A stretch of DNA of 64,000 bases from Mytilus galloprovincialis. Taxonomy: Eukaryota. Below the pieces are notes generated by a model that saw nothing but the letters and a program-made list of their open reading frames with translations, ran no database searches and was not told the origin of the DNA. The stretch spans positions 70,173,664 to 70,237,663 of the forward strand of contig NC_134847.1 of assembly GCF_965363235.1 (NCBI RefSeq). Direction: 5' to 3'. Shown piece by piece: positions 8,443-57,300 of the stretch. The first letter of the stretch is position 1. Every line of letters starts with the position of its first letter. The position numbers and the translations under genes are program-made.

Positions 8443-8924
8443 GTAGGGATTTTTATGCCCCACCTACAATAGTAGGGGCATTATGTTTTCTGGTCTGTGC
8501 ATTCATTCGTCTGTCTGTCCCACTTCAGGTTAAAGAGTTTGGTCAAGTTGACGTCCAATCAACTTGAAACTTTGTACACATGTTTCCTATGTACAATGGT
8601 ATCTTTCTACTTTTAATGCCAAATTAGATTTGTGACCACAATTTCAAGGTCCACTGAACATTGAAAATGATAGTGCGAGTGGGGCATCCGTGTACTATGG
8701 ACACATTCTTGTTAATGATTAGTTGACTACAAATGCCAAAAAATACAGCATTACTGTTTGTTTTGCAGTTCTTCATCTTTTTGTCATTATATAATCCTAA
8801 AATATCAATTATAACTTTATCATAATAACAAAAGAATCTTTAATAGTGAGGAAATTGGGAATATATTGCAATGAAAATTACTGTTGATGTTGATTTTTTT
8901 ATTTTTATTAACTTTGTTCTTTAG

Positions 8925-9458: not shown

Positions 9459-9628
9459 GTAAGGATTTTTAATTATTAGTTGACCACAAATGTCAAAAAT
9501 TGTCATACAGTTCTTAATCTTTTTGTCATTATATAATCCTAATATATCAATTTTAACTCTATCATAATAACAAAAGAATAATGAGAAAATTCAGAATATA
9601 TTACAATAAAATTTACTGCTGATTTTTT

Positions 9629-11342
9629 TATACGACAGCAAAAAATGAAATTTTTTTGGTGTATATTGGTATCAGGTTGGCGTCGTCGTCATCGTCCGAA
9701 GACATTTGGTTTTCACACTCTAACTTTAGTAAAAGTAAATAGAAATCTATGAAATTTAAACACAAGGTTTATGACTATAAAAGGAAGGTTGGGATTGATT
9801 TTGGGTGTTTTGGTTCCAACAGGTTAAGAATTAAGGGCCAAAAAGGGCCCAAATAAGCATTTTCTTGGTTTTCGCACAATAACTTAAGTATAAGTAAACA
9901 GAAATCTATGAAATTTTAACATAAGGTCTATGAACACAAAAGGAAGGTTGGGATTGATTTTGGGAGTTTTGGTCCCAACGAATTAGGGGCCAAAAGGGTC
10001 CAAGATTAAACCTTGTTTGATTTCATCAAAAAATGAATTATTAGGGTTGTTTGATATATGCCAAATCTAACCGTGCATTCAGATTCTTAATTTTTGGTCC
10101 TGTTTTCAAATTGGTCTCTCACAAACATGTTTAACCCCGCCGCATTTTTGCGCCTGTCCCAAGTCAGGAGCTTCTGGCCTTTGTTAGTCTTGTATCATTT
10201 TAACTTTTAGTTTCTTGTGTACAATTTGGAGTTTAGTATGGCGTTCATTATCACTGAACTATTATATATTTGTTTAGTGGCCAGCTGAAGGACACCTCCG
10301 GGTGCGGGAATTTCTCCTTGCATTGAAGACCTGTTGGTGACCTTCTTCTGTTGTCTGCTCTGTGGTTGGGTTGTTGTCTCTTTGGCACATTCCCCATTTC
10401 CATTCTCAATTTTATCTACATTTAGGTCCAAAGGGTCCAAAATTAAACTTAGCTTGATTTTAACAAAAATTGAATTCTTGGGGTTCTTTGATATGCTGAA
10501 TCTAAACATGTACTTAGATTTTTGATTATGGGCCCAGTTTTCAAGTTGGTCAAAATCGGGGTCCAAAATTATTATATTAAGTATTGTGCAATAGCAAGTC
10601 TTTTCAATTGCGCAATGGCAAGAAATATCTAATTGCACAGTATTGTGCAATAGCAAGAAATTTTCAATTGCACAGTTGTTGGAAATCATGCACTGAAGAG
10701 AACAGTATTATGCAATAGCAAGAAATCTTCAATTGCACAGTACTGCGCAATAGCAAGAAATATCTCATTGCACAATATTGCGCAATAGCAAGAAATTTTC
10801 AATTGCACAGTTTTGGGCGATAGCAAGAAATATTCAATTGCACAGTATTGTCCTGTTTTCAAATTGGTCTACATTAAGGTCCAAAGGGTCAAAAATTAAA
10901 CTTTGTTTGATTTCAACAAAAATTGAATATATGGGGTTCTTCAATATGCTGAATCTAACCATGTATTTAGATTTTTAATATTTGGGCCCGGTTATCAAAT
11001 TGGTCCATATTGAGGTCTAAAGGGTCTAAAATTGAACATTATTTGATTTCATCAAAAATTGAATTCTTGGGGTTCTATGATATACTGAGTCTAACCATGT
11101 ATTTAGATTTTGGATATTGGACCATAATAGGTAAATGTCCAATTTGAAATTTTTAAGTTTTTAAGTTTAAGTTCTTAGACCACATTCATTCTGTGTCAGA
11201 AACCTATGTTGTGTCAACTATTTAATCACAATCCAAATTCAGAGCTATATCAAGCTTAAATGTTGTGTCCATACTTGCCCCAACTGTTCAGGGTTCGAAC
11301 TCTGCGGTCGTATAAAGCTGTACCCTGCGGAGCATCTGGTTC
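9629..11342. mobile_element. Composite non-autonomous element of about 1.7 kb. It has a terminal hairpin tatacgacagc…, a CGT microsatellite, about 160-bp A-repeats, about 85-bp B-repeats (ggtccaaagggtccaaaattaaac…gatatgctgaatctaac…), about 36-bp C-repeats (gtattgtgcaatagcaagaaattttcaattgcacag), and a conserved tail …ccccaactgttcagggttcgaactctgcggtcgtataaagctgtaccctgcggagcatctggtt
   Basis: It lies in the intron of the second HSP70 duplicate. The matching intron of the first duplicate (8880-8924) lacks it, which gives an empty-site comparison. The right end carries TGCGGTCGTATA, the reverse complement of the left-end TATACGACCGCA. A 280-bp SINE-like element is nested at about 10120-10400. The minus-strand ORF 10207..10689 is spurious. 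Confidence 0.75.
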
Positions 11343-11363
11343 AATTTTAACTTTGTTCTTTAG

Positions 11364-27027: not shown

Positions 27028-29150
27028 TATACGACTGCAAGCGTCGTCCAAAGACACTTAGTTTCCGAATAATAACTTTAGTTTAAGTGAATGGATTTCT
27101 ATGAAATCTAAACACAAGGTTAACAACCACAAAAGGCAGGTTGGATTAATTTGGGGGTTATGGTTCCAACAGGTTAGGAACATGGGCCCAAAAAGGGGTC
27201 AAAATAAGTATTTTTCTAGTTTCCAGACAATTACTTGTGTGTAAGTGTATGGATCTTTCTGAAATTGTACCACAAGGTTTCATTCCATAAAAGGAAGGTT
27301 GGGATTGATTTTGGGGGTTATGGCCCAAACTGTTTCGGGATCAGGGGCCAAAAAGGGGCAGAAAACAATACTTTTCTAATACTTTGTATAAATTGCTTAT
27401 TTCTTGAACAATTTCAAGGGGTTTTATTTTTGAATTCTTGGGGTTCTTAAATATGCTGAATCTAACCGTGAATTAAGTTTTTGGAATTTGGTCCCTGTTT
27501 ATAAATTGGTCCACATGAGGTCTAAAGGGTCCAAAATTAAACTTTGTTTGATATCATAAAAAATTGAAAGATTGAGGTTCTTTTATTTGCCAAATCTATT
27601 CAATGACATGTATTTAGATCTTTAATTTTTTAATTTTTTCAAATAGGTCTACATTAAGGTCCAAAGGGTCCAAAATTAAACTTACCTTGATTTTAACAAA
27701 AATTGAATTCTTGAGGTTCATTGATATGCTGAATCTAAACATGTGTTTAGATTTTTATACGGCCGCAAAAATTATAATTTTTTTTGTCGTATATTGGTAT
27801 GATGTTGGCATCTGTGTCGTCGCCGTCCGAAGACATCTGGTTTTCACACTATAACTTTAGTATAAGTCAATAGAAATCTATGAAATTTAAACACAAGGTT
27901 TATGACCATAAATGGAAGGTTGGGATTGATTTGGGGAGTTTTGGTCCCAACAGTTTAGGAATTAGGGCCCAAAAAGGGCCCAAATAAGCATTTTTCTTGG
28001 TTTTTACACAATAACTTTAGTATAAGTAAACAGAAATCTATGAAATTTTAAAATAAAGTTTATGACCACAAAAGGAAGGTTGGAATTGAATTTGGGAGTT
28101 TTGGTCCCAACAGTTTAGGAATTTGGGCCAAAAGGGTCCAAAATTAAACTTTGTTTGATTTCATCAAAAAATGAAGTATTGGGGTTCTTTGCTATTCCAA
28201 ATCTAACCGTGTATTCAGATTCTGAATTTTTGGTCCTGTTTTCAAATTGGTCTACATTAAGGTCCATAGGGTCCAAAATTAAATTTAGCTTGAATGTAAC
28301 AAAAATTGAATTCTTGGGATTCTTTGATATGCTGAATCTAAACATGTACTTAGATTTTTGAATATGGGCCCAGTTTTCCAGTTGGTCCTAATTGGGGTCC
28401 AAAATTATTATTTTAAGTATTGTGCAATAGCAAGAAATTTTCAATTACGCATTATTGCACAATAGCAAGAAATCTTGAATTGCACAGTATTGTGCAATAG
28501 CAAGAGATTTTCAATTGCACAGTATTGCACAATAGCAAGAAATTTTCAATTTCACAGTATTGTGCAATAGCAAGAAATCTTCAATTGCACAATAGCAAGA
28601 AATTTTCAATTGCACAGTTTTGCACAATAGCAAGAAATATTCAATTACACAGTATTGTCCTGTTTTCAAATTGGTCTACATTTAAAAGGTCCAACAGGTC
28701 AAAAGTTAAACCTTGTTTGATTTCAACAAATATGAATATATGGGGTTCTTCAATATGCTGAAAGGAACCATTTATTTACATTTTTAATATTTGGGCCCTG
28801 TTATCAAATTGGTCCACATTGAGGTCTAAAGGGTCCAAAATTGAACATTATTTGATTTCATCAAAAATTGAATTCTTGGGGTTCCATGATATGCTGAATC
28901 TAACCATGTATTTAGATTTTGGATATTGGACCATAATAGGTAAATGCCCAATTTAAAATTTTTAAGTTTTTATGTTTAAGTTCTTAGACCACATTCATTC
29001 TGTGTCAGAAACCTATGTTGTGTCAACTATTTAATCACAATCCAAATTCAGAGCTGTATCAAGCTTAAATGTTGTGTCCATACTTGCACAAACTGTTCAG
29101 GGTTCGACCTCTGCAATCGTATAAAGCTGCACCCTGCAGAGCATCTGGTT
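27028..29150. mobile_element. Two adjacent composite elements of the 9629 family, 27028-27763 and 27764-29150
   Basis: Hairpin starts tatacgactgcaa at 27028 and tatacggccgcaaaaatt…ttgtcgtata at 27764. The second ends with the conserved tail …gcagagcatctggtt at 29150. The minus-strand ORF 28115..28345 is spurious. Confidence 0.7.
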
Positions 29151-29550
29151 GATTATGGGCCCAGTTTTCAAGTTGGTCCAAATTGGGGTCTTAAATCAAA
29201 CTTTGTTTGATTTCTACAAAAACTGAATATATGGGGTTCTTTGATATGCTGAATCTAACCATGTATTTAGATTATTGATATTTGGACCCTGTTATCAAAT
29301 TGGTCCACATTGAGGTCAAAAGGGTCCAAAATTAAATTTTTTTGATTTCATCAAAAATTGAATTCTTGGGATTCTTTGATATGCTGAATTAATCCATAGC
29401 CATGTATTTAGATTTTGGATATTGGACCATAATAGGTTAATTTAAATTCAGAGCTGTATCCAGTTTGAATGTTGTGTCCATACTTGCCCCAACTGTTCAG
29501 GGTTTGACATCTGCGGTCGTTTAAAGCTGTACCCTGCGGAGCATCTGGTT
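29151..29550. mobile_element. Additional fragment made of B-repeats plus the conserved right arm and tail
   Basis: …ccccaactgttcagggtttgacatctgcggtcgtttaaagctgtaccctgcggagcatctggtt ends at 29550. Confidence 0.6.
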
Positions 29551-30804: not shown

Positions 30805-31214
30805 GTAGGTGTTTCATGTTTATATTACAGTGTAACCTGTGTAAACCGACACACTGGGTGACCAGAAAAAAATGTCAGATTAAGCAGGGTGCCAGAATAC
30901 TCGGGTTTTTGTTGAGCCTCCAACTTTAGTTGCAGAAAGCTCGACATAGGGATAGTGTTCCAGCAGCAGCGGCGGCGTTAGCTAACTTCTTGAAAGCTTT
31001 ATATTTTAGAAGGTGGAAGACTTGGATGCTTCATACTTTGTATGTGGATGCCTCATGTTACAAAGTTTCCGTCAGTCACATGACCAATGTCCTTGTCCTC
31101 ATTTTCATGGTTCAGTGACTGCATGAAAAAAAGGTTAACATTTTTTGCAATGTTTAATTCTCTCTTATTATAAGTAATAGGATAACTATATTTGGTATGT
31201 GTGTACCTTGCAAG

Positions 31215-31860
31215 GTCTTCATGCCCTTCAGACAGTTTTCACTTGACCTTGACCTCATTTCATGCATCAGTGAACAAGATTAAGTTTTGATGGTCAAGTC
31301 CATATCTCAGATACTATAAGCAATAGGTCTAGTATATTCGGTGTATGGAAGCACTGTAAGGTGTAGATGTCCAACTGGCAGGTGTCATCTGACCTTGACC
31401 TCATTTTCATGGTTCAGTGGTTATAGTTAAGTTTTTGTGTTTTGGTCTGTTTTTCTTATACTGTATGCAATAGGTCTACAATATTTGGTGTATGGAATGA
31501 TTGTAAGGTGTACATGTCTAGCTGGCAGGTGTCATCTGACATTGACTGCATTTTCATGGTTCAGTGTTCAAAGTTAAGTTATGAATTTTGGTCTTTTTTT
31601 CTAATACTTTATGCAATAGGTCAACTATATTTAGTGTCTGGAAATATTTTATGATCCTTGTGTCAGTTGCGAGGTTTTATTTGACCTTGACCTCATTTTC
31701 ATGATTCATTGCTCGGTGTTATGTTTATATGTTTTGGTCTGTTTTTCTTAAACAATAAGCAATAGGTCAACTATATTTGTTGTATGGAAGAATTGTTAGC
31801 TGTACATGCCTGCCTGGCATGGTTCATCTGACCTTGACCTCATTTTCATTGTTCATTGGT
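31215..31860. repeat. Tandem array with a unit of about 130 bp, about 5 copies (…tgaccttgacctcattttcatggttcagtg…ttttggtctgtttttcttatactgtatgcaataggtc…), in an intron
   Basis: Direct periodicity. Related fragments occur at 19975-20075 and 20345-20410. ORFs 31442..31654 and 30930..31118 are not supported. Confidence 0.8.
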
Positions 31861-33119
31861 CTATGTTTAGTTTTCTTGGGTAATGTTAAGTTTATGTGAC
31901 AGTTGTAATAAAGCTTAATATTTAGGACTATCAACATAATATCAATGATTAGTTAAGAAGGCGAGACATTTGAGCCTGTGCACTCTTGTTTTTGTAAGGA
32001 TAGGCATAGGTTACACTGTACTTACATTGAGTATGAACCACTGCTTGAGAATATTATTTCAAACGGATTCAATCCATTTAGTAGTCTAGTTCAATATTGG
32101 CATGATTCGAAATATCAAGTTTCAATTCACTTAAGGAGAAGGTTCAATTTTGGGTTTTTACCCTAATATCATATATATTTCATGCTTTCTCAATTTAGCA
32201 GAATAAGGAGGTGATTTTTAAATTTTTATTAAACTGGGCAGTTATAAAATGCCAATGAATATGGTTAAATGGCAAACTAATCTAAAATCTTGACTATAAG
32301 TATTTGACATGGACTTACGAAGAATTAATTAGAGCACAACCGTCACCAAAACAAAACTCATGCAGCTGGTTAATCAAGAGAGGCAAAAGGAACATTTAAA
32401 CTCAAAAGTCGAAAAATAAACCATGGTTAAAAGGACAAACAGACAAACAGCAGTATACAAAACATAGAATAAATGGAAATTAAGGGGGCTCCTGGGTAAA
32501 AATCAAATTTGTTTTCTAATTTAGGATTTCGCTATATCTTTTTATAAATAAACTTTATCATATACTTAAAAGAAAAATGAAATAAAAAAATGGGGTCACC
32601 GTTCATTTAAGCTCACAATCTGCCTCCGGAAGAAGCATACATTTTTGTTAATGCCCTTTTTTTCTGTTGAGCTAATAGGAGAAATAGAGGTAATATCGAA
32701 ATAAAAAAATAACCTAATTACAGAAATCGCTTAAATTTTACAATTATTTAGTTTATGTACAGCTTATTTGAAAACAATAATAAGAAATATAGGTCACCGA
32801 TGAGTTAAAAAAGATATTTCAAATTTAATGCCAAAAAATGGCATTTTTGCACCAAAGGGAGATAATTTGGAGCTTTTTCAATGATATAAACATTTTAAAA
32901 GTCATCTGGAGCCAAATCGAATCGATTTTTTTGGGTTGATTTTTGTACCATATCATAAAGTAATAACTAATAGTGTAATAAATAAAATTTGTAATGAAAA
33001 AAAAAAAGGTTTAATTTTTTGCTGAAATTTTTGTACCCACGAGCCACCTTAAGCATCTTGGAGGGCTGACACTTATTGAAACTATTTAATTTCAAGCTAA
33101 GTACAATATTCTATTTCAG

Positions 33120-33560: not shown

Positions 33561-34569
33561 TCTCCTGGATGTTGCCTAGATACTGGACTTCTGTCATTGC
33601 TTGAAAATGGTTATGCAAAACAAAATAAAAATTGATGCAATAGTATAGAATTGTACCTTCATTGTCTTTATCCTGTTAGGCATTATAATTGTCAATAACG
33701 ATAAATTGAGTTTGTGAACAAAAGATTAATTTTCATCATACCATTTACGATCAGGGATCAGTTATACAACTTTAATATCATTTAACAGATTATTTATTAT
33801 AATGAGATTGATTTTTTGTTTTACATGAGGCTTCACATTTGTATTTCTTTATCTATTTACAATTTGGTTATAAAAAAAATGTGATAATTAGTTCAGGTGA
33901 TATTGTCCAAAAAAGTAGTAGAACAATGCTGTTGTTGTATATATCTGCAGAATACAGTGGCGGATCCAGAAATTTTCATAAGTGGGGGCTCATTTACTGC
34001 CTAAGAGGGGGCCCGCTCCAGTCATACTTCAGTGATTCCCTATATAATCAATCAATTTTTTCCCAGAAAAATCCTATAAATCCGCCTCTGGAATACACTT
34101 TGACTTATATGTAATGATCAAAATGAAAGATATGTTGCAGATATTAGTTAAATAAACAAGTTATAATTTTTCAATTTTACTATTTTTCAATTCATAATAA
34201 TAAAAAAAAAAATATTGATAAAAAAATGTCTCCATCCATTAATGATTTATTGTTATCATTTCACAATTACAAATAACAATTTATTGAGAATAAAAAAAAA
34301 ACACTTCACATTGATTATTTACTTAATTTAATTGTGTCATTATGCAGCTGATTGAAAATTCATGGAAGGTTTTAAAGATTTTGGTTCATTTAATAATCAT
34401 GTTTACAAAATTTGTATATTGGACTTTATTACATGAAGAACAATAGATGAATTTTAGTTTTAAAAATGGCAAAATTACTTCTTTTCTGCAAAAAATTGAT
34501 TGAAAAATGTCAAGAGCAGGCTGCACACATTTGGGTTATTTTTCATAAAGACCAACCCTTTGTAAATTA

Positions 34570-36661
34570 TTATACGACCGCAAAAATTTTAATTTTTTGG
34601 TCGTATATTGCTATCACGTTGGCGTCGTCGTCTGCGTCGTCGTCGTCGTCGTCCGAATACTTTTAGTTTTCGCACTCTAACTTTAGTAAAAGTGAATAGA
34701 AATCAATGAAATTTTAACACAAGGTTTATGACCACAAAAGGGAGGTTGGGATTGATTTTGGGAATTTTGGTCCCAACATTTTAGGAATAAGGGGTCAAAA
34801 AGGGCCCAAATAAGCATTTTCTTGGTTTTCGCACTATAACTTTAGTTTAAGTGAATAGAAATCTATGAAATTTTGACACAAGGTTTATGACCACAAAAGG
34901 AAGGTTGGGATTGATTTTGGGAGTTTTGGTTCCAACAGTTTATGAATTAAGGGCCAAAAAGGGGCCCAAATAAGCATTATTTTTGGTTTTTGCACCATAA
35001 CTTTAGTATAAGTAAATAGAAATCTATGAAATTTAAACACAAGGTTTATGACCATAAAAGGAAGGTTGGGTTTGATTTTGGGAGTTTTGGTCCTAACAGT
35101 TTAGGAATAAGGGGCCCAAAGGGTCCAAAATTGAACTTTGTGTGATTTCATCAAAAATTGAATAATTGGGGTTCTTTGATATGCCGAATCTAACTATGTA
35201 TGTAGATTCTTAATTTTTGGTCCCGTTTTCAAATTGGTCTACATTAAGGTCCAAAGGGTCCAAAATTAAACTTAGTTTGATTTTAACAAAAATTGAATCC
35301 TTGGGGTTCTTTGATATGCTGAATTTAAAAATGTACTTAGATTTTTAATTATTGGCCTAGTTTTCAAGTTGGTCCAAATGGGGGTCCAAAATTAAACTTT
35401 GTTTGATTTCATCAAAAATTGAATAAATGGGTTCTTTGATATGCCAAATCTAACTGTGTATGTAGATTCTTAATTTTTGGTCCAGTTTTCAAATTGGTCT
35501 ACATTAAGGGTCCAAAATTAAACTAAGTTTGATTTTAACAAAAATTAAATTCTTTGGCTTATTTGATATGCTTTAATATCTAAATATGTACTTTGATTTT
35601 TGATTATGGGCCCAGTTTTCAAGTTGGTCTAAATCAGGATTCCATATCAAGTATTGTGCAATAGCAAGAAATTTTCAAGTGCACAGTATTGCACAATAGC
35701 AAGAAATATCTAATTGCACAATATTGTGCAATAGCAATTAATTTTCAATTGGAGTTATCTTTCTTTGTATAGAATAATAGTTGATAATATATGTTGGAAA
35801 TTTGCCAGACATGACTATGATGTCATTTTCTATTTTTATTTGCCAAAAACTTTATGTAAATAACTTCATTGGAAATTTGCCAATATAAAATGTTGCTGAT
35901 GAAGCTTTTTTTCCTTATCTTATCTAAAATGTTTTTAGATAATGTATGTTGGACATTTGCCAGACATGACTATGATGTCATTTTCTATTTTTATTTGCCA
36001 ATAACTTTATGTAAATAACTTCATTGGAAATTTACCAATATAAAATGTTGCTGATGAAGTTTTTTTTATTGTTTTATACAATAAACAATGTATATTCACT
36101 TTTACTACCAACCAATCTTTACCATTCAGTGATAACAAGCACTTTATTTTACATATTAATATTTTATGATGTATTTAAAAGAGTAGTTATTGTTGCAAAC
36201 TCCATTAGAAATTTGAATTGATATCAGTTTTGGAAAAAGGGAAACGTGGATGTGAAAAAAAAGGGGGGGGTTTAAATTTTTCTCATTTCAGATTTCATAA
36301 ATAAAAAGAAAATTTCTTCAAACATTTTTTTGAGAGGATTAATATTCAACAGCATAGTGAATTGCTCAAAGGCAAAAAAAAACTTTTAAGTTCATTAGAC
36401 CACATTCATTCTGTGTCAGAAACCTATGCTGTGTCAACTATTTAATTTTAGATTTAAAAAGTTTGAAGAAGAAATCTTTAATTGATTTGTAAAATCTTGA
36501 CATTTGTTTTGTGTAAAAAAAAACCATGTAATGTCAAAAATTTGATCACAATCCAAATTCAGAGCTGTATCACGCTTGAATGTTTTGTCCATACTTGCCC
36601 CAACTGTTCACGGTTCAACCTCTGCGGTCGTATAAAGCTGCGCCCTGCGGAGCACCTGGTG
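34570..36661. mobile_element. Composite element of the 9629 family, about 2.1 kb. Its right arm (36388-36661) is split from the rest by unrelated sequence
   Basis: Left hairpin tatacgaccgcaaaaattttaattttttggtcgtata, then a (CGT)n microsatellite, three A-repeats, B-repeats and three C-repeats. The tail is …ctctgcggtcgtataaagctgcgccctgcggagcacctggtg. Confidence 0.7.
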
Positions 36662-37175: not shown

Positions 37176-39814
37176 TATAGTTGTTTATATTGGTAATTTT
37201 TATTTATTTTTTTGTATGTATTTACCATTTATTTGTACAGTTTAATGAATTTGTACTATAGTTGTGACTGCATGGCTCACTAGAAAATTGTTAGCTGTCA
37301 GGAATGTATATACAGTTGAGAAAAGTTTATTCTTCAGTGTAAACTAAAACTCTTACTGCAATAGAGATCAGTCTATGGCTTGGCTTGTTGCAAGTTTGAA
37401 AAAATCAGTCCCTATCCTTAATAAGGAATTTTCAGTGACCATCAAAATAACATACTTTTGTTAATTATTGAATATGTTTGTGTCCTAGATGTACATGAAA
37501 TATTTACCACAGGTCATTATGGATACGACAATCAATAAATCATGCCATATTTGTATAAAATACTTCTTAATTTATTTCCTATGATTTTCAAAAGACATTT
37601 GAGATACATGAACATATTTGCCTGTCTTTGTTTAAGTGCTTCAGGATATTGATTTGATACAGATCAAGATCGAATTTTAGTTGGGTCTTATGATTATTAG
37701 CAGAATTGTGGTCCTTGACAGGCTAGTGCTATAGTAGTCCGACTGCAAATGGACAACTTAGATTGATTGATTGATTGTTGATTGTTGGTTGCTTTTAGAA
37801 CATCCAGACATCTGAGACACTGTAAGATGAATATATATGCCCAACAAGAAACAATGACCAAAATGAAATTAGCTGGCTGATCAGTATATGGTTGCCCCTG
37901 TCAACTGATACAATTATTAACTCAGGAACATATATATTGAGATATACTGTTTCCAGATTTTCTGTGGCTAGACCTTGATCTTTTTTTTTTAAATGTCCAT
38001 GTAATCAAATTTATAGGTGAGAAATGCAGGTGTCAAATTATGTAATTGGATATTGCCTGATAAAATGATACAAGTAATATCAGAATTTCATTCCATTGAT
38101 AAAGTTAAAACCCAATTACTGCCATGTCAAACGTTCAAGAAATTGATTCATTTGAAGAAAGATGTCTTCCGTTATTTTTCCCCAATGAAAATTTAATGTT
38201 GATACATATTTAAAAACTGTGCAATCTACTTCTTGTCTTGAATTCATATCACCAAACGTATTTGTTTGGTGAGGATGAATTCATATATTTTCATGGCTCT
38301 AGATTATGGTTGAAAAAAAGGTTTTATTAAAAAAAAATATAACAATATTTGGCATGATTGCCAGTGAGAAAAACTCCTGCAAAGACCAAATGACTTAGAA
38401 GTTAAAAGCTACAGGTCATCCTATGTTTTGTTTTTGGTTACCTGTTACATCTATCTCTCACAAATCTACAATCATGAATTACAGCGAGGCAAAAGATACC
38501 AAAGGTAGAAAATAAGCTGACAATGCCATGGCTGAAAAAAAAGAATAAATGAAATAAACAACAGAACAGAAAGTATAACATAGAAAACTAAAGAATGGAC
38601 AACATGAACCCTAACAAAAGCTGGGGGTAATTTCAAGTTCTTAAAGGTACAACATTGTCAAAGGTAAAAGGTAATGCAAGGATCATAATTAAAGTATAAC
38701 CAAATATTGGTTTTAAGTTGCAGGACATTAAAAGAAATAATGAAAAATATTTTCTTTAATTATGTAAATTTAAGTTCACTTTATTTAATAAATGTATTTG
38801 TTTATGTATGAAAAAAAAGGTTATCATACACTAGAAATGATTTTGGATATTTAAATCTTTTCATCGACCGGAATACTTTAAACCTAGAATACAGATGCCC
38901 TATATTCTGATGTTTGCACCAATCAATCATCGTTTGTTCTTGACCTCATTTTCCTAGTACAGTGGCTCATTCAAAAGTCTCAGTAATTTTTTTTCTTGAC
39001 AGTAACTTTAGACACATAGTTCGAGACTTAGGAATAATAATCTGCCGTTGCCAAAAAAACTTCGTATACAGCTTAATTTTCAGAGGTTAGAGGCCTGGAT
39101 GCTGGATTTTTTTTTTGAGCCATGGCCTTTTAAGTTTACTTTCGACTTATGAGTTTCAATGACCCATTGGTATCACTGGCCCCTCTTGTTTTCATCTTGT
39201 ACAAAGATCTATCGTTTTCAGTTCTTCGTAATTGGCCTTGGTTCAGTAACTGGTGAGAAAAAATGGCTTTGTTTTGTTAAGTGATTTTCGCATGGACTCT
39301 GACGGCTTCATTGATAACTGGTCAATAGTTTTTAAAGCAATTGCTTTTATGCTATCGCGTATGGCCATCTTTGTGACCCAGATCAGAGACTCCGCCCATA
39401 TCAAGCCATAGTATTTTGTTAAACAGGCTCCTGGTCTGTCATTCTTTAACACCTATGTATGTTTTCTAATGCAATACATAGCTTGAAACTTTAAAAAAAC
39501 GTTAGTGGATTTAAGAAGTTTCAGAATACGTTCTTGTAGATGTATTTTTGTATTTAAAGGGTCAACCGTTTGACTATCAAATAACATAGAAGTCCGAGTG
39601 AAAAAAAGTACATTTTTATAACTGCGATTCCGTTTTCCGCCGTTCGTACGATGTTTCAACAAAATATGGATTCATTTCAGTTGTTGATTTAGTATTGAAA
39701 ATTTAACTGAATTACCTCCTATTAAATACGGTTTTTAACCGGATTTTTGTGACAAAAATGTCGGTTATTGATTTGGGGATGTACGGCGGGCGGCCGGGCG
39801 GTCGGGCGGGCGGC

Positions 39815-40580
39815 AATCAAATGTTGTCCGTGCATTAACTCATGAACCGTTCAACCAAAGCTTTTAAAATTTTAATATGTTATTCCTGACAACTATACGA
39901 AGGTCAAGTTCAATAATGGCGATTTTGACTTTTACCGTTCAGGAGTTATGGTTCTTGAAAGATTGAAAAATGCAGTTGTCCGTGCATTTACGCATGAACT
40001 GTTCTACCAAAGCTTCCCAAATTTTAATATGTTGTTACTAATGAAAGAATGGAGGTCAAGTTCAATAATGACAAATTTGACTTTTATCGTTCAGGAGTTA
40101 TGGTTCTTGAAAGATTGAAAAATGGAGTTTCCAGTCGTGTCCGTGCATTTATGCATGAACTGTTCTTCCAAAGCTTCCGAAATTTTAATATGCTGTTACT
40201 GATGACAAAATGGAGGTCAAGTTCAATAATGACGATTTTGACTTTTACCGTTCAGGAGTTATGGTTCTTGAAAGATTGAAAAATGGTTTTTCCCGTCGTG
40301 TCCGTGCATTTTCTCATGAACCATTCAACCAAAGCTTTTGAAATTTTAATATGTTGTTACTGATGACAAAATAGAGGTCAAGTTCAATAATGACGATTTT
40401 GACTTTTACCGTTCAGGAGTTATGGTTCTTGAAAGATCGTAAAATGGTGTTTCCATTCAGGTTGTTGCATTTACTCATGAACCATTCAATCTAAGCTTTT
40501 CAAATTTTAATATGTTGATACTGATGACAAAATGGAGGTCAAATTTGATATTGACGATTTTCACTTTCACCATTCATCAG
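39815..40580. repeat. Tandem array with a 150-160-bp unit, about 5 copies (ccgtgcatt.actcatgaac.gttc.accaaagcttt.aaaattttaatatgttgttactgatgacaaaatggaggtcaagttcaataatgacgattttgacttttaccgttcaggagttatggttcttgaaagattgaaaaatg…)
   Basis: Direct periodicity. It is preceded by a GC-rich (CGGGCGG)n run at 39782-39820. ORF 40049..40279 is a repeat artefact. Confidence 0.85.
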
Positions 40581-41732
40581 TAATGGTTCTTGTGATATTG
40601 CCAGGACACAAATTAATGTTAATAAATCCGGTTTGCTGTCGTTGTGACAGCCTCTTGTATATGTTTAATTTGTGTTTCTTTAGGAGGTCAGGTGCTCTTG
40701 TTCATTCATAAAATTATCGTTCATTCATACATTTATCGTAAAATCAAAATCACTACACAGGTTAATGCGTAGTGTCAAATGATTACCTGTAATCTAAAAA
40801 TAGACAAACTTTGTTTGCGCAAATAATTTAGCGGAACGAAACCCTTGTTGAAAACACATAACAATAAGTTCGTTTTCCTTTTCTGTCAAACTCCGTAATA
40901 TTTATCGATCACCTTACTAATGAAATGGACCCGTCCAAACGTAGTAGATGCCAAGTCGGTCCAGGTGAAGTGGAATTTTCTAGTTACATAGATTGAAAAA
41001 AAGTACGTCTTTTTAAATATCATGATCAAAACTGGGAATGCATAACAAATGTCAGATGAAACCATTATCCTCGTCTTTTCAGTGAACAAGTCTACTACGT
41101 TTGTTGACACTCGACGGTCCACCGTGTTAGCAATTTTATTTCACATGTTTTCGAAATATTGAAGATCATTTTTCGCAATGTTTCCTGAAAATTGATAAAT
41201 GTCAAAGCAATGTAGAGCTGTTTGTTCTTGTTCGTATAATAAAATTGAGAATGGAAATGGGGAATGTGTCAAAGAGACAACAACCCGACCATAGAAAAAC
41301 ATACAACAGCAGAAGGTCACCAACAGGTCTTCAATGCAGCGAAAAATTCCCGCACCCGGAGACGTCCTTCAACTGGCCCTAAACAATACATCAGTGATAA
41401 CGATTTAATGTCATGTTTGTCTGTGATGACCCCCCCCCCTTTTCGGGATTGCATGAGAATTATAGTTATCTCGTACCCACATGCACTTGTTTCTATCCAT
41501 AGGAAGGTCGGCTATCCATATAAAACTATTTTGGATAGAAACAAGTGCCTGTGCTCGTACCGCATCAGAAGGACATACATGTATATCAACTGAGCAATAA
41601 TGTTTGGAACTTAGTTTTAAAAATGATGACAAAGTACCATTTATTTATGAAAATATTTTTATTAAGCTGAAATATATATTTATTCTTTACATGTTTATGT
41701 CTTGTAAGATATTTTATTTCTTTCCCGTTTTT

Positions 41733-42530
41733 ATACGCCCGTCAAAATTTTGACGGGACGTATTATGGTATACAAATGTCCGGTGTCCGTCCGTCTGTCT
41801 GTCTGTCCGTCCGTCTGTCTGTCCGTCCGTCTGTCTGTCCGGCTTAAACATGTCGCACCGTAACTTGAGAACGACTTATCCAAATTTCATGAAACTTAAC
41901 ATAGTTGTTTCTTATGATGGTCAAATGATCTGTATACTTTTTGGTGAAAATAAAATTAAAACTTTTTGAGTTACGGCACTTTGTAACTAAAACGGGTGTG
42001 TTTTTTTCACATGTCGCACCGTATCTCAAAAACGATTCTTGATTATGGCTTTAAACTTTAAACACTCTTAGTTATATTAATCTTAATATCTGTATACTTT
42101 TTGGTGATGATTCAAAATTTAATTTTTGAGTTATTGAGTATTTTGTAAAAAAGGGGGAGGGTTTTTTTTACATGTCGCACCATATCTCAAAAACGATTTA
42201 TGATTATTACTTAAAACTTTACACATGTCTTTGTTATATTAATCTGAAGATCTGTATACTTTTTGGTGATGATTCAAAATTTCATTTTTGAGTTATTGAG
42301 TATTTTGTAAAAAAGGGGGAGGTTGTTTTTTTTTTACATGTTGTGCCGTATCTCAAAAACAATTTATGATTATTGCTTAAAACTTTACACACTTCTTTGT
42401 TATATTAATCTAAAGATCTGTATACTTTTTGATGATGATTCAAAACTTTATTTTGGAGTTATTGGGTATTTTGTTAAACAGGGGAGGGTTTTTATGCAGT
42501 TAAGCTGCATTATGCGAGCACCCTAGATTT
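41733..42530. mobile_element. Composite element related to the 9629 family. It has a palindromic end tatacgcccgtcaaaattttgacgggacgta, a (GTCC/GTCT)n microsatellite at 41778-41840, and about four tandem units of about 160 bp (acatgtcgcaccgtatctcaaaaacgatt.atgattat…agggggaggg)
   Basis: The end architecture matches 34570 (hairpin, GTC-rich simple repeat, tandem array), but the internal array is different. A partial copy of the 160-bp unit lies at 45455-45710. Confidence 0.6.
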
Positions 42531-43824
42531 GTGTTCTACCCAATAAATCATAAGATACTTGCCATTGTTATTATCTAGCTTGCTACTATGTTATATATAA
42601 CTAATTGAACACTTTTTTAATACTTTTTATTCTGGATTACAAAAAAAATGACCAGAAAAACCTTAAATGATCGTCGATTTATCCAAAAGTTTTAAAGTTA
42701 CACATAGGAAGTAGTGCTTATTAAGAATCCTTGTGTAGTTCATTATGACTTGTGCTTTTAGCTAAGATGTCAAAGAACAATTGTATGAAATATTTAATCG
42801 CCGAAAATCTCTTAAGACAAGCAGTTTAGATTTCCCAAATGACAAAAGTCGTAGGAATATGGTTTGTCATCAATACGTAGTACAACTACGTCAGTAGTCT
42901 ATTATATAATAAGTTCAACTGTTCATGCTGTTGGCGGCAATTTCAAATTAGAAAAAGAAATTTTCGTAGCTTTTCAATTTGGAGGCAGGTGTGCAAATTA
43001 GCGGGGGTCCGAGGTCCGCGATCTTCCACTTTTGCAAGCGGAATTTCGACTAGGATAGTTGGTTTATAGCTACGCCCGACGTAGTCACCTTACATTTGAA
43101 AGAAAATAAGAAATTACTTTGCAAACCTTTTCACCATCAAAGTCTCCAATTAAACGAGCTAAAAACCTATTTTTATCAATATTATTCATGACGGCGATGT
43201 TCATTTTGTTCAACCGCTAGCTTTATACAGAAAATCGCCGACAAATATTGTATAAATTCGAGTAAAATCGTATCTGATTGACAAAAACAACATTGTAAAC
43301 ACATAACAATGGCGGCCGTGAAGACAAAATTTTACTAAATCGGTTCCGATTCCGGAAGCGGATAAGGGTAATTCCGGGTTTGGCGATCATTTACAAAATT
43401 AATCCAAGCAGGTGAAAAAATACATCTATGCATGGTAAATGAATATAAACACTAGTATTGTAAACCAAAAGAAAGAAAAAGCAGAAAAATATTTTATTCA
43501 GAAACTCAAAATTACTTTTTGACAAATTTTAATTTAAAAATCCAATACAACGTGACAGCTGGGAACAGTATATATCTAACAATATACATGTTCATGGTCA
43601 CAGTCTAAATTTTCTTTATAAATGATAAATGATGATAATGCATGTGAGATGCTTTTAAAGTGTAAACATATTACTGCAATTTCGAGGGGTTATTTGTTTT
43701 TTCTCAGGGCAATTTTGAAGGGTCAATTAAAGTAGCCGAAAGTTTCATTCTTTATTTTCACAAATAATGCAACTATATTATATATACCTTAATGTAAGTA
43801 CATCATATGATATATAGGTGGCAT

Positions 43825-44960
43825 TCTTTGGGACACTATACCCCCTCCTGTTTGATAACTTGGAAACGGTCGAGCTCCCCAACCCTAAACCATATGAGGG
43901 GCAGATCCAGGATTTTAGGTTAAGAAGGGCGCAAACTTAAATTTTCGCCGAGCAGAGCGAGGCTAAAAAAAAGAGGTAAAATTATCGGAATATTCTTTAT
44001 TAAGCTGAGAACAACCCATGCTTTGCAAATTTAAGCGGGGTGCAAGCCCGCAACCCTCCCCGTCTGAATCCGCCCCTGCATATATTCAAGTATAGGACAA
44101 TATAATAAATAAAAAATGAAATATAGGGGGAGTCCCTGGAGTTACCCCACCCCTCCTATTTGAGAACTTGGAAACGGTCGAGATCCACACCCCTTAACCA
44201 TATATATTCATGTTTGTGACAATATGAAAAATCAAATGAAATCTAGGAAGAGTCGCTAGGGGTCACCCCACCCCTCCTGTTTTAGACTTTAAAAATGGTC
44301 GAGATCCCCATCCCTAAACCATATATATTCATGTATGGGACAATATAACAAATCAGATGAAAGATAGGGGAGTCCCTGAGGTCACTGTTCACCCTCCTGT
44401 TGAGAACTTGGAAATGGTCAAGATCCTTACCCCTGAACCATATATACTCATGTATGGGACAATATAACAAATCAAATGAAATATAAGGGAAGTCCTTGTG
44501 GTCATCCCAACCCTCCTGTTTGAGAACTTGGAAACGGTCGAGATCCCCACACCAAAACAATATATATTCATGTATGGATCAATATAACTAATTAAATGAA
44601 ATATAGGGGCATTCCCTTGTGTCACCCTACCCTTCCTGTTTGAGAACTTGGAAACCAATGAGATCCCCATCCCTAAACCATATATATTCATGTATGGGAC
44701 AATATAACAAATAAAATGAAATGATGGGGAAGTCCCTAGGGTCACCCTACCCCCAGTGGCGGATCCAGAAATTTTCATAAGTGGGGCCCACTGACTGACC
44801 TAAGAGGGGCCCGCTCCAGTCACGCTTCAGTGATTCCCTATATAAGCAACCAAATTTTTCCCCAAAAAGGGGGTCCAGGCCCCCTGCCCCCTAAATCCTC
44901 TGCCTACCCCTACCTGTTTGAGAACTTGAAAACCGTTGAGATCCCCACCCCTAAATTATA
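43825..44960. repeat. Satellite with a 120-bp unit, about 8 copies (cccctcctgtttgagaacttggaaacggtcgagatccccacccctaaaccatatatattcatgtatgggacaatataacaaatcaaatgaaatataggggagtccctggggtcacccta)
   Basis: Periodicity of about 120 bp, with two inserted segments at 43900-44090 and 44755-44895. The latter is a copy of the repeat at 33950-34085. The minus-strand ORFs 44282..44560 and 44389..44778 are artefacts. Confidence 0.85.
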
Positions 44961-47235
44961 TATATTCATATGTATGGGTTAAAATAACAAATCATTTACA
45001 TTTACTATGGGCAAGTCAGTCAGACCTCACCTTTGATCCCTGTTGTAGTGAACATTTGTCTGATTCGTGTCTCATAACTTTTGTACTATGGAACACAAAC
45101 TCAGTTTTCTTTCAAGGGAAACCAGTCCATTCATACTATTACATGTTCATACTAAGTCAAATTGAACTTCTAGCAGTCAAATTAAACCAAGGTTAACTAC
45201 CAAGTAGAATAAAATGCAATCATTGGGAACTTGTACCACTGCAGACTCACCATAAAAAATATACATTGATATATGCATTGCTTTTGAAACCTTGATAACA
45301 TATAAACTATTTGCCTTAATAAATAAATCATTAGATAAACATTAATGTACTATATATGAATGTTTAATGTTGAGGCAACATTGCCACAGTTTTCATAATT
45401 ACGGTTGCCTTGGTTTTTGGTTAACTGCCTTCAGCGCTTACAGCGCTTTGATTTTACATGTCGCTCCGTATCTCAAAAATAATTTATGATTATTGCTTAA
45501 AACTTTACACACTTCTTTGTTATATTAATCTAAAGATCTGTATACTTTTTGGTTTTGATTCAAAGTTTTATTTTAGTGATATTTAGTTTTTTGTAAAAAA
45601 AAAAACAGGGTTGGGGGTTTCACATGTCCCGCCGTGTCTCAAAAACAATATATGGTTATTGCTTAAAACTTTCTCAGAAACTATTTATGATTATTGCATA
45701 AAACTTCCACACTAGACGTCGGGCGTATCATGCGCTCATGGCGCAGCTGTTTATTTAACATTTGCGTCTGGAAAGTTGAAATGTTTTAACTTAATCATTT
45801 GTGTTAATGGTTAAATATAAATTAATAATGAAAATTGTTAAAATTAAATCAATAAAGGAAATTATTGCCCAGTTACAAACACTACCAGGGGATAATCCAT
45901 GATGATTTCTTTTTGAGTTATATGTTTCAGCACATGTATATTTGACCCCAACTTTAGCCTGGTAAACGTGTTGTCTCCTTGTGAAATATAAAACATATTA
46001 AAAATGACTTTCTGCTAAAGTCTTTTATTTATATAAAGTTAAAACCTTCTTACTTCTAACTAGACAACACTCATGTCAGGTTTAATTATTATATATATGT
46101 GGATGAAAAATAAAAGTCCCCAAACATTAACATGACAGCAATTGCTTTTACAGCCTTTAAGGCTTTGATTTTTAATTGATTCTTTCTCTGATATTTTAAC
46201 TAATTGAACAACTTTATTTGGTGTATGCAATAATTTGAAGCGTGATAGTCAGTCTGGAAGCTGAATAGATCTGATTTTGACATTATTTCTAAAGTTCACT
46301 GGTTAATCATATTTTTTCTCATAATATAAGCAACATGTCAATATTCGGTAAATTCAATTATTGTACAGTGAACCTGTCCGCTTGGCACACAGGATACAAC
46401 AGATACAGATATGTCTGAAAACTTTTCATTTCTATGAAGCAATATACAAAAGGCGCCTGCATATGGTTATTAATCGCCAAGTTGATATGATTTGCAAGAG
46501 CTTACATTTCCGATCATGTTTCCTTGATAGAATATTATTGATATAATAACAAGGAGTTTTTAAACCAAAAATTCCGAATGATGAACTTGAAATTATTCCT
46601 TCGAAAACTTTATGGACTGATGGTTGACCGTTATAGAATATCTGTTTCAGTATAAAGTATCAAAGAAATTCTTATTTCAAGTAATAAGTAAGATACCTTT
46701 CACCATTAAAATTTAGTTTAAAGATAAGTTGAGATAGAAAATTTTCATTTGCCTTTAAGTAAAAAAAAAATCGATTATATCGTCATCGCTGATATCGAGC
46801 AATTATGATTGAATGGTATTAAGTATTGTCTTTATGAAGTTTAACTGAGGCAAATGTAGTTCACAAGAGTAAATTAATGAATCGGAAATAATGACGATGC
46901 AGCTAATAATATGTTACATTGGAATACAAATAACCAATGACCAGTAAAGAACGAACATAATTAGTTATCAAAGGTACCAAGATTATAATTTAGTACGCCA
47001 GACGCGCCTTTCTTCTACATTAGACTCATCAGTGACGCTCATATCAAAATATTTATAAAGCCAAAGTACAAAGTACAAAGTTGAAGAGCATTGAAGATCC
47101 TAAATTCCAAAACGTTGTGACAAATACGGCTAACTAAGGTAATATATGCCTGGGATAAGAAAATCCTTAGTTTTTTTTTCGAAAAGTGCAAAGTTTTGTA
47201 AACAGGAAATTTATAAAAATGACCACATTGTTGAT

Positions 47236-54347: not shown

Positions 54348-57300
54348 ATGTACATACATGGGAAAGTCAGGTTACAATGGTTACACGCATGGATAATCAG
54401 GTTACAATGGTTACACGTATGGAGAATCAGGTTACAATGGATACATACATGGGAAAGTCAGGTTACAATGGTTACACGTATGGAGAATCAGGTTACAATG
54501 GATACATACATGGGAAAGTCAGGTTACAATGGTTACACGCATGGAGAATCAGGTTACAATGGTTACACGTATGGAGAATCAGGTTACAATGGATACATAC
54601 ATGGGAAAGTCAGGTTACAATGGTTACACGCATGGAGAATCAGGTTACAATGGTTACATGTATGGAGAATCAGGTAACAATGGATACATACATGGGAAAG
54701 TCAGGTTACAATGGTTACACGCATGGAGAATCAGGTTACAATGGTTACATACATGGGAAAGTCAGGTTACAATGGTTACATGCATGGAGAATCAGGTTAC
54801 AATGGTTACACGCATGGAGAATCAGGTTACAATGGTAACATGCATGGAGAATCAGGTTACAATGGTTACATACATGGGAAAGTCGGGTTACAATGGTTAC
54901 ATACATGGGAAAATCAGGTTACAATGGTTACATACATGGGAAAGTCAGGTTACAATGGTAACATGCATGGAGAATCAGGTTACAATGGTTACATACATGG
55001 GAAAGTTGGGTTACAATGGTCACATGCATGGAGAATCAGGTTACAATGGTTACATACATGGGAAAGTCAGGTTACAATGGTAACATGCATGGAGAATCAG
55101 GTTACAATGGTTACATACATGGGAAAGTTGGATTACAATGGTTACATGCATGGAGAATCAGGTTACAATGGTTACCTACATGGGAAATCAGGTTACAATG
55201 GTTACACGCCTGGAGAATCAGGTTACAATGGTTACATACATGGGAAAGTCAGGTTACAATGGTTACACGCATGGAGAATCAGGTTACAATGGTTAAATAC
55301 ATGGGAAAGTCAGGTTACAATGGTTACACGCATGGAGAATCAGGTTACAATGGTTACACGTATGGAGAATCAGGTTACAATGGATACATACATGGGAAAG
55401 TCAGGTTACAATGGTTACACGCATGGAGAATCAGGTTACAATGGTTACATACATGGGAAAGTCAGGTTACAATGGTTACACGCATGGAGAATCAGGTTAC
55501 AATGGTTACACGCATGGAGAATCAGGTTATAATGGTTACATATATGGGAAAGTTGGATTACAATGGTTACATGCATGGAGAATCAGGTTACAATGGTTAC
55601 CTACATGGGAAATCAGGTTACAATGGTTACATACATGGGAAAGTCAGGTTACAATGGTTACATACATGGGAAAGTCAGGTTACAATGGTTACACGCATGG
55701 AGAATCAGGTTACAATGGTTACATACATGGGAAAGTCAGGTTACAATGGTTACACGCATGGAGAATCAGGTTACAATGGTTACACGCATGGAGAATCGGG
55801 TTACAATGGTTACACGCATGGAAAATCAGGTTACAATGGTTACATACATGGGAAAGTCAGGTTACAATGATTACACACATGGAGAATCAGGTTACAATGG
55901 TTACACGCATGGAGAATCAGGTTACAATGGTTACATACATGGGAAAGTCGGGTTACAATGGTTACATACATGGGAGAGTCAGGTTACAATGGTTACATGC
56001 ATGGAGAATCAGGTTACAATGGTAACATACATGGGAAAGTCGGGTTACAATGGTTACATACATAAAAAAATCAGGTTACAATGGTTACATGCATTGGGAA
56101 GTCATGTAACAATGGTTACATACATGGGAAAGTCAGGTTACAATGGTTACACGCATGGAGAATCAGGTTACAATGGTTACATACATGGGAAAGTCAGGTT
56201 ACAATGGTTACACGCATGGATAATCAGGTTACAATGGTTACATACATGGGAAAGTCGGGTTACAATGGTTACATACATGGGAAAGTCAGGTTACAATGGT
56301 TACATGCATGGTGAATCAGGTTACAATGGTTACATACATGAAAAAATCAGGTTACAATGGTTACATACATGAAAAAATCTGGTTACAATGGTTACATGCA
56401 TGGAGAATCAGGTTACAATGGTTACATACATGGGAAAGTTGGATTACAATGGTTACATGCATGGAGAATCAGGTTACAATGGTTACCTACATGGGAAAGT
56501 CGGGTTACAATGGTTACATGCATGGAGAATCAGGTTACAATGGTTACATACATGGGAAATTAGGTTACAATGGTCACACGCATGGAGAATCAGGTTACAA
56601 TGGTTACCTACATGGGAAATCAGGTTACAGTGGTTACACGTATGGAGAATCAGGTTACAATGGTTACACACATTGAGAGTCAGGTTACAATGGTTACATA
56701 CATGGGAAAGCCAGGTTACAATGGTTACACGCATGGAGAATCAGGTTACAATGGTTACATACATGGAGAGTCAGGTTACAATGGTTACATACATGGGAAA
56801 GTCAGGTTACAGTGGTTACACGTATGGAGAATCAGGTTACAATGGTTACACACATTGAGAGTCAGGTTACAATGGTTACATACATGGGAAAGTCGGGTTA
56901 CAATGGTTACATACATGGGAGAGTCAGGTTACAATGGTTACATGCATGGAGAATCAGGTTACAATGGATACATACATGGGAAAGTCAGGTTACAGTGGTT
57001 ACAAGCATGGAGAATCAGGTTACAATGGTTACCTACATGGGAAAGTCAGGTTACAATGGTAACATGCATGGAGAATCAGGTTACAATGGTTACACACATT
57101 GAGAGTCAGGTTACAATGGTTACATACATGGGAAAGTCGGGTTACAATGGTTACACGCATGGAGAATCAGGTTACAATGGTTACACACATGGAGAATCAG
57201 GTTACAATGGTTACATACATGGGAAAGTCAGGTTACAATGGTTACATGCATGGAGAATCAGGTTACAATGGTTACATACATGGGAAAGTCAGGTTACAAT

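Follow-up and report, generated by a model that had tools for sequence, protein, structure and literature searches.

The 64,000-nucleotide stretch of Mytilus galloprovincialis DNA analysed here (assembly GCF_965363235.1, contig NC_134847.1, positions 70,173,664 to 70,237,663, forward strand), which we refer to as the window and number from its first letter, is AT-rich (GC 0.29-0.38) and dense in short satellite-like arrays (56 rows reported by Tandem Repeats Finder, TRF). The subject of this report is a composite repeat beginning at 41731, here called family B, which opens with an almost perfect palindrome, TTATACGCCCGTCAAAA/TTTTGACGGGaCGTAT, continues with a (GTCY)n microsatellite and a tandem array of 161-166 bp units, and is interpreted below as part of a probable non-autonomous Helentron (HINE). 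A preliminary description had delimited the feature as 41733-42530. All sequences quoted in it are present at the site; its start is sound, except that the element begins two bases earlier, whereas its end does not stand, 42530 probably falling inside a second, nested element (E). The parts of the locus are as follows.

41731..45749, + strand: family B element, likely full extent including the nested element, about 4.0 kb (from the pair of subterminal inverted repeats, array phase and the likeness of unit u5 to unit u4)
41731..41763, + strand: left flank of B, with the 5' subterminal inverted repeat (subTIR) TTATACGCCCGT (41731-41742) and its complementary inverted repeat (IR) GACGGGaCGTAT (41752-41763), which form a hairpin
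41784..41841, + strand: (GTCC/GTCT)n microsatellite, 14 tetranucleotide units
41848..42493, + strand: central tandem array of B, units u1-u4, 161-166 bp each (TRF, BLAST)
42494..45451, + strand: putative nested HINE-like element E, about 2.96 kb, to which one or two flanking T may belong
42494-42510, + strand: candidate 5' subTIR of E, ATGCAGTTAAGC, with IR CTGCAT
44080-44753, + strand: central array of E, 120 bp x 5.6 (TRF)
45419-45430, + strand: candidate 3' subTIR of E, GGTTAACTGCCT, complementary to the start of E at 10/12 positions
45433-45447, + strand: candidate 3' hairpin of E, AGCGCTtacAGCGCT, then TTGA before a T run
45452..45706, + strand: continuation of the B array (TTTT, unit u5, partial units)
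45719..45749, + strand: right flank of B, with 3' subTIR TCGGGCGTATCA (45719-45730), hairpin TGCGCtcatgGCGCA (45731-45745), GCTG and a T run

Left end and central array of family B

The site reads ...cccgttt TTATACGCCCGTCAAAATTTTGACGGGACGTATTATGGTATAC..., the 5' subTIR TTATACGCCCGT standing directly 3' of a T run, so that the 5' end is TTATACG with TTT before it. Folded as single-stranded DNA, the palindrome TATACGCCCGTCAAAATTTTGACGGGACGTAT (41732-41763) gives a 13-bp stem with one bulge at -12.3 kcal/mol (z = -6.4), a stability that was matched by 0 of 200 shuffled sequences. In short form, the left module of B can be written TTATACGCCCG...hairpin and the right one CGGGCGTAT...hairpin.

Within the array, TRF reported a period of 166 bp and 3.5 copies (41927-42493), while BLAST delimited four units (41849-42493); the repeats begin ACATGTCGCACCGTATCTCAAAAAC and the array stops within an inter-unit T run. 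Its orientation is fixed, with the microsatellite lying 5' of the array in every copy of all families in the window. An imperfect inverted repeat of 30 nt, with arms TTTTTGAGTTATTGAGTATTTTGTAAAAAA and TTTTTTACATGTCGCACCATATCTCAAAAA that are 70-73% complementary, bridges each junction between 166-bp units (42123-42196 and 42285-42359). No open reading frame (ORF) of at least 130 amino acids occurs within 41731-45749, in keeping with the non-coding nature of HINEs, and an Rfam scan of 39000-46500 returned no match.

Extent of the element and a putative nested insertion

No 3' subTIR was found between the left end and 42530, a position about 37 nt inside the sequence that we read as a separate nested element. 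The B array breaks off at 42493 in the T run that separates its units (GGGAGGGTTTTT, then ATGCAG...), and B-type units restart at 45457, after TTTT and precisely from unit position 1, with a normal total count of T. The units show a positional gradient of similarity along the array, and u5, the first unit after the gap, is nearest to u4, the last one before it (95% identity over the first 84 nt; at most 90% for the other units). Farther downstream stands the 3' subTIR TCGGGCGTATCA, also written CGGGCGTATCA, which lies with its hairpin near 45749 and is complementary to the 5' subTIR TTATACGCCCGT at 10/12 positions, 4 kb away. T runs flank the B copy on both sides, and by analogy with the termini of family A, described below, its 3' end is most likely ...GGCGCAGCTG with TTT after it. 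The preliminary description had asked whether opposite ends share the ...gcggtcgtataaagctg... tail; the B end shares the design of that tail, namely a complement of its own subTIR followed by a hairpin, and does not share its sequence.

The 2.96 kb between the two B pieces appear to carry HINE-type ends of their own. A general inverted-repeat search of 41700-45800 was swamped by chance pairs in AT-rich sequence and was replaced by a targeted end-to-end test of subTIRs and hairpins, which yielded the subTIRs and hairpins of E listed above; moreover, the left flank of E and the left end of family D, a short element found elsewhere in the window, have a common frame, TTTTTATGC...GCATTATG. Singly, such features are not rare, as 4.7% of random segments give a terminal match of at least 10/12 and 8.6% of random 41-nt stretches hold a perfect stem of at least 6 bp. 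It is because these individually weak features combine with the continuity of array phase and with the complementary missing ends of the two B pieces that a nested insertion is the best reading, and E is therefore probably a HINE-like element inserted into an inter-unit T run of B.

The alternative that survives best retains the kind of element and changes its extent. B would then end at about 42524, as the preliminary description had it, with an A-like right tail (AAGCTGCattatGCG-AGCACC, ...AAGCTGCATTATGCGAGCACCCTAG) and without a 3' subTIR, 45457-45749 would belong to a second B copy that has lost its 5' part, and 2.9 kb of host DNA would separate the two. The 27 nt that follow the array do resemble the family A tail AAGCTGCgccctGCGGAGCACC (P ~0.005 per comparison), hardly any further copy of the interior 42530-45400 is present within the window, and the chance levels of the subTIR and hairpin given above (4.7% and 8.6%) also speak for this arrangement. 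Against this, three coincidences would be needed: that the array halts in a T run and restarts at unit position 1 with a normal T count; that the first piece lacks a 3' subTIR and the second a left flank, so that the gaps are complementary; and that the middle piece starts with the D-type frame and ends with a subTIR, a G+C hairpin and a T run. Keeping in mind also that u5 is most like u4, we consider the shorter extent unlikely, though by no means far-fetched, and retain the element of about 4.0 kb with E nested in it.

Two further observations concern E. Its left end, AAGCTGCattatGCG-AGCACC (42494-42524), is similar to AAGCTGCgccctGCGGAGCACC (36636-36659), the hairpin tail at the 3' end of family A, at P ~0.005, which is marginal; the likeness could be due to chance, to a shared recognition hairpin or to module exchange. 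Taking it as proof of an element end at 42524 was rejected on account of this marginal significance, and it was kept as part of the alternative above. In addition, a 117-bp segment beginning CAGTGGCGGATCCAGAAATTTTCATAAGTGGGGCCC... occurs both at 44754-44868, where it adjoins the 120-bp array inside E, and at 33955-34070, with 89% identity, and is thus a dispersed repeat.

Relation of family B to family A

The left end of B has a counterpart at 34570, where the sequence reads TTATACGACCGCAAAAATTTTAATTTTTTGGTCGTATATTGCTATCAC and continues into (CGT)n. This is the start of the reference copy of a second family, A, of which the following copies were recognized.

34570..36659, + strand: reference copy A4, with TTATACGACCGC and its IR, (CGT)n, and arrays of ~160, 126-136 and 35 bp
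36624-36635: 3' end of A4, perfect 12-bp subTIR GCGGTCGTATAA, then hairpin and terminus AGCTGCGCCCTGCGGAGCACCTGG
9628..11339, + strand: copy A1, within an HSP70-like intron (the second of a paralogous pair)
~16250-17500, + strand: decayed copy
~17930-19388, + strand: 5'-truncated copy
27027-29548, + strand: outer copy of a nested pair, left hairpin deleted (TTATACGACTGCAAGCGTCGTCC)
27755..29148, + strand: copy nested in a 126-bp unit of the outer copy, defining the termini TTATACG...CATCTGG

In the 34570 copy, GCGGTCGTATAA complements the 5' TTATACGACCGC at every position (12/12) and a short hairpin follows it. At least five further A copies each have a 3' GCGGTCGTATAA and a conserved tail, with outside flanks that differ between copies; each A copy ends ...CTCTGCGGTCGTATAA-AGCTGyrCCCTGCrGAGCAyCTGG, then T. 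A search for TTATACGNCCG with at most one mismatch returned 11 matches vs 0.65 expected, the minus-strand ones lying at family A 3' ends. The A ends are thus subterminal inverted repeats with asymmetric ends, rather than a simple palindromic motif. Within the copy at 9628-11339, a 126-136 bp unit is broken at ~10116-10413 by about 300 bp of unrelated sequence (CTCACAAACATGTTTAACCCCGCCGCATTTTTGCGCC...), which is probably another small mobile element.

The preliminary description held that the sequences at 41733 and 34570 share an end module and differ in their internal array, and both parts of this claim are borne out. Over the first 24 nt the left ends of B and A are identical at 19/24 positions (~79%), and the score of their local alignment was reached by 0 of 5000 shuffles. 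The gapped motif TATACGNCCN{8,36}GNCGTAT occurs at 27756, 34571 and 41732, with 0 expected from 100 shuffles; the site at 34571 is palindromic, so that the minus strand matches there too (3-4 matches in all). Like that of B, the A left end folds as a single-stranded DNA hairpin (-9.9 kcal/mol, z -4.9), and changes in one hairpin arm are mirrored in the other: in A, ATACGACC pairs with GGTCGTAT, and in B, ATACGCCCGTC pairs with GACGGGaCGTAT. BLAST, on the other hand, found nothing similar to the 166-bp B unit (E < 0.01) among the array units of the 34570 family. By the rule of Thomas et al. (2014, PMC4067079), members of one family have at least 11 identical subTIR bases. Because the A subTIR TATACGACCGC and the B subTIR TATACGCCCGT are identical at 9/11 positions, A and B count under this rule as related yet separate families.

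To look beyond the window, a pattern covering both A and B (TTATACGNCCGNNAAAATTTT, 18 specified bases) was run against 241 M metagenome records. It matched 22 loci, where ~15 are expected by chance; 21 of the 22 lie in unrelated contigs, for the most part of higher GC, and match by chance, which leaves one true relative. This contig (L003; Ga0102963_1115981, minus strand, 1088 bp, GC 0.34) carries TTATACGACCGC, the IR GTGGTCGTAT and (GTCGGC)n; its first unit is partly A-like and is followed by a different internal repeat with a period of ~159/326 bp. Judged by its sequence, it again combines the same end with a different cargo, and is presumably bivalve DNA in a metagenome. Viral contigs scanned with the same pattern gave 0 matches. 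The scans of these collections yielded only this one related non-autonomous contig.

Mobility and insertion target of the sister families

The window contains an HSP70-like gene fragment (7929-11500, + strand) in which two tandem copies of an HSP70 exon (Pfam profile positions 377-501) are each followed by a paralogous intron. A search for homologues of this exon returned generic HSP70s only, none above 69% identity. Alignment of the two introns revealed a reciprocal pattern: only the first contains an element of family D, and only the second contains the A copy at 9628. The two D copies in the window are given here.

8453..8711, + strand: short HINE of family D without array, TTATGCCCCAC...GGGGCAT, (GTCT)n remnant, 3' GTGGGGCAT
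~22664-22965, + strand: decayed copy of family D

Within the introns, some 25 nt separate A1 from the 3' splice site downstream of it, and D follows the 5' splice site after some 10 nt. The filled D site reads GGATTT-(TTATGCC...CATTCTTG)-TTAATGATTAG, the element being in parentheses, and the empty one GGATTTTTAATTATTAG. For the A copy nested at 27755, the filled site is TTAGATTT-(TTATACGG...CATCTGG)-TTGATTATGG, and five uninterrupted units serve as empty sites, four of them reading TTAGATTTTTGATTATGG or a close variant and the fifth, the 35254 unit, TTAGATTTTTAATTATTGG. If the termini are taken as TTAT...CTGG/CTTG, both D and the A copy nested at 27755 have inserted exactly between the third and the fourth T of a run of five T (TTT^TT), without duplication. 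In all, the window offers three comparisons of filled with empty sites that show such insertions for A and D. An arrangement in which 27027-27754 and the copy at 27755 stand in tandem, the former 3'-truncated, was considered and rejected, as BLAST shows an interrupted 126-bp unit that resumes at 29149. In this way the window offers self-contained examples, in the form of reciprocal presence and absence in introns and two nested insertions, which fix the termini and the TTT^TT target.

All HINE-like copies in the window, amounting to 11-12 copies of 5-6 families with both nested pairs included, lie on the + strand (starts at 8453, 9628, 16250, 17930, 22664, 27027, 27755, 30905, 34570, 39722, 41731 and 42494). 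Such uniformity would arise about 1 time in 1000 if insertions were independent. One possibility is that T runs serve as a target in a strand-specific way in transcribed (intronic) DNA; selection on orientation is another.

Classification of the element

HINEs have been defined as elements whose subTIRs lie a few nucleotides (2-4) from the 5' end, whose IR is separated by 3-22 bp from the 5' subTIR, which contain a microsatellite and central repeats as well as a 3' stem-loop, and which insert into T-rich sites, with two or more T on either side, without modifying the target (PMC4067079). B has the 5' subTIR, the complementary IR, the GTCY microsatellite, the central array and the absence of coding capacity, and a 3' palindrome is present as TGCGCtcatgGCGCA (45731-45745); a right-end hairpin is also found in families A, C and E. 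The marks of canonical Helitrons (5' TC, 3' CTRR, a palindrome of 16-20 nt ~11 bp from the 3' end, insertion at A^T) were not found; here the termini are TTAT... and ...CTGG/CTTG, the hairpin stems are 5-6 bp long and insertion occurs within T runs. We therefore read the sequence at 41733-42530 as the 5' half of a HINE, of the DINE-1, pearl, MgE, DTC84 and Cg_HINE kind, and put the probability of this reading at about 0.88.

Several points weigh against this assignment. The 3' subTIR of B matches at 10/12 positions and is not perfect, and its pairing with the 5' end hinges on the nested insertion of E. The right-flank hairpins are short and weakly better than shuffled sequences (z -0.8 to -2.1). 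No empty site for the B copy itself exists within the 64-kb window. Further, the filled sites of the sister families carry two extra T and are equally readable as showing a 2-bp TT duplication. Finally, no Helentron Rep/helicase/endonuclease gene was found in the window, the ORF list offering no candidate and Pfam detecting only HSP70, and the link to an autonomous partner consequently rests on structure and on the literature.

The two extra T bear directly on a different classification, in which these elements would be MITEs (miniature transposable elements with inverted repeats) of a cut-and-paste family with a DDE transposase and a 2-bp TT/AA target duplication. An excess of exactly two T is what a TT duplication would give, short inverted repeats do occur near both ends, and pearl, DTC84 and their relatives were so classed in the older literature (PMC3879986). 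The inverted repeats here, however, are subterminal, the ends are asymmetric, with a hairpin and microsatellite on one side and a separate 3' hairpin on the other, and the elements keep one orientation with respect to the T run; in addition, elements of like structure have been tied to autonomous Helentrons by ends that are 84-99.9% identical in mite, mosquito and Drosophila, without target modification (PMC4067079). A MITE origin hence appears quite improbable. As for a chance or low-complexity end motif beside ordinary local satellites or segmental duplications, the circumstance that the preliminary description had named as fatal to its own proposal, the AT-rich, repeat-dense region does abound in short inverted repeats, but such an explanation is barely credible given 3-4 end motifs where 0 are expected, the 11 matches of TTATACGNCCG with minus-strand ones at element 3' ends, differing copy flanks, the same placement of the motif relative to microsatellite and array in every copy, the reciprocal presence and absence at paralogous intron sites and a nested copy with exact junctions.

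Comparison with known elements

As in the HINE assignment proposed for B, DINE-1/HINE elements and Helentrons have the same subTIRs, IR, microsatellite, central repeats, 3' stem-loop and T-rich insertion (PMC4067079), and the same work lists pearl, MgE and DTC84 as DINE-1-like elements of molluscs. Its supplements contain no subTIR of the TATACG type, and a full-text literature search for the subTIR strings retrieved only unrelated primers.

The closest published parallel is in Crassostrea gigas, from which 11 Cg_HINE elements with GTCY/GTCC/GTCK microsatellites have been described, some with two consecutive arrays (Vojvoda Zeljko et al. 2020, PMC7492417). These have a 5' subTIR of 11-12 bp, a complementary IR of 7-12 bp located 1-12 bp away, central repeats of ~150-180 bp, a 3' subTIR with a palindrome, and T-rich or TT insertion sites without target-site duplication (PMC7492417); GTCY-class microsatellites are also known from lepidopteran elements (PMC4067079). 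Group 2 of Cg_HINE combines related flanks with completely unrelated arrays, for which its authors propose that flanks of common origin took up repeats independently of one another (PMC7492417). Compared by layout, the elements described here are identical to Cg_HINE, and group 2 corresponds to the situation of A versus B. The systems differ in their hosts and sequences and in that Cg_HINE elements contain one or two types of array, whereas family A has three. For the origin of arrays, the literature offers capture of filler DNA or amplification of internal sequence (PMC7492417).

DTC84 of Donax trunculus and the pearl elements CvA, CvE and CvG of Crassostrea virginica consist of a flank L, up to ~5 core repeats of ~160 bp and a flank R, with an ACGG microsatellite; the DTC84 flanks have been called a 'cassette' for the core repeats, and repeat variants are ordered along the array, with a palindrome near the unit junction (PMC3879986). 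ACGG is the complement of GTCC in another register, and the B units likewise have an inverted repeat at the junction and a positional gradient. In contrast, pearl and DTC84 were first read as MITEs with an AA duplication, and their sequences are unrelated to those described here, as far as can be judged.

In M. galloprovincialis itself, MgE, found in HSP70 introns, has been outlined as a pearl-type element that carries the satellites Mg1-Mg3 (Kourtidis et al. 2006). Compared by description only, it resembles family A in having several satellite arrays and in its location, an A copy lying here in an HSP70-like intron, a position that by itself would point to a mytilid host. It differs in having been reported without a microsatellite (PMC3879986), whereas A and B have one. 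The array periods of the A copies determined by TRF are ~160, 126-136 and 35/70 bp. They fit the unit lengths reported for the MgE satellites, 169, 260 and 70 bp. Should A prove to be MgE, B would still be a sister family of it and not MgE itself.

Proposed mechanism and implications

The preliminary description suggested a transposition machinery that recognizes the hairpin end and moves tandem arrays around the genome, and in outline this agrees with published HINEs, in which related flanks enclose unrelated central repeats. The element would be built of a left module (T-rich terminus, 5' subTIR, its own complementary IR as a hairpin, GTCY microsatellite), a passenger in the form of an array of tandem repeats of ~165 bp, and a right module (a 3' subTIR that complements its 5' counterpart, then a short G+C-rich hairpin and the terminus, followed by T). 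A Helentron Rep/helicase/endonuclease supplied in trans would recognize both terminal modules, one strand would be mobilized by rolling-circle ('peel-and-paste') transposition and integrated into a T run without target duplication, and anything between the modules, tandem arrays included, would be copied along. Afterwards arrays may lengthen or shorten via unequal exchange or slippage, and related terminal modules may acquire unrelated arrays, giving rise to sister families such as A and B. The B copy would later have been hit in an inter-unit T run by the HINE-like element at 42494-45451. The window shows directly how the elements are built, that the ends of A and B are related and their arrays are not, that sister copies are present at some sites and absent from the paralogous ones, and that these copies are inserted in T runs without detectable duplication; the rolling-circle chemistry and the trans-acting Helentron protein we infer by analogy with the Helitron/Helentron literature.

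A bolder, rather doubtful extension is that the terminal modules are exchangeable, structure-constrained parts, that their 5' hairpin is kept by compensatory change (A, B and the metagenomic contig), that modules recombine and that the T-run target is strand-specific. If so, the compensatory change would imply a functional signal for recognition or initiation, the A-tail-like hairpin at the 5' end of E would imply that new HINE families form by recombination of left and right modules together with new arrays, and the same-strand orientation of at least 11 copies in 64 kb would result from a T-run target that is specific to one strand of transcribed DNA.

Both this kind of element and the phenomenon of array exchange are already known, and conceptually our analysis adds nothing beyond the published oyster, clam, mussel and Drosophila elements. 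What it contributes is a corrected extent of the element (~41731-45749), a probable nested element, and proof of mobility for sister families from within the window. For annotation, much of the satellite-like DNA here belongs to a few HINE families, and the dispersed arrays, GTC-rich microsatellites and recurring hairpins are best masked or annotated as Helentron-derived.

Other families and repeats in the window

Besides A, B, D and E, the window contains a family C, whose sequence is unrelated to A and B, and possibly one further family.

39722..40657, + strand: HINE of family C, subTIR AACCGGATTTTT pairing with ATAAATCCGGTT at 11/12 positions, (CGGG/CGGC)n, array of 161 bp x 4.8; near its 3' end a hairpin GCTGTCgttgtGACAGC with a 6-bp G+C stem
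30905-31990, + strand: possible further family, with a (GCA/GCG)n microsatellite and 147-bp repeats

Two minisatellites were also observed. One, at 1-1727, has a 61-bp period and 27.7 copies and extends past the start of the window; the other, at 54351-57851, has a 30-bp period (TACATACATGGAGAATCAGGTTACAATGGT) and about 115 copies, and is open in several reading frames.

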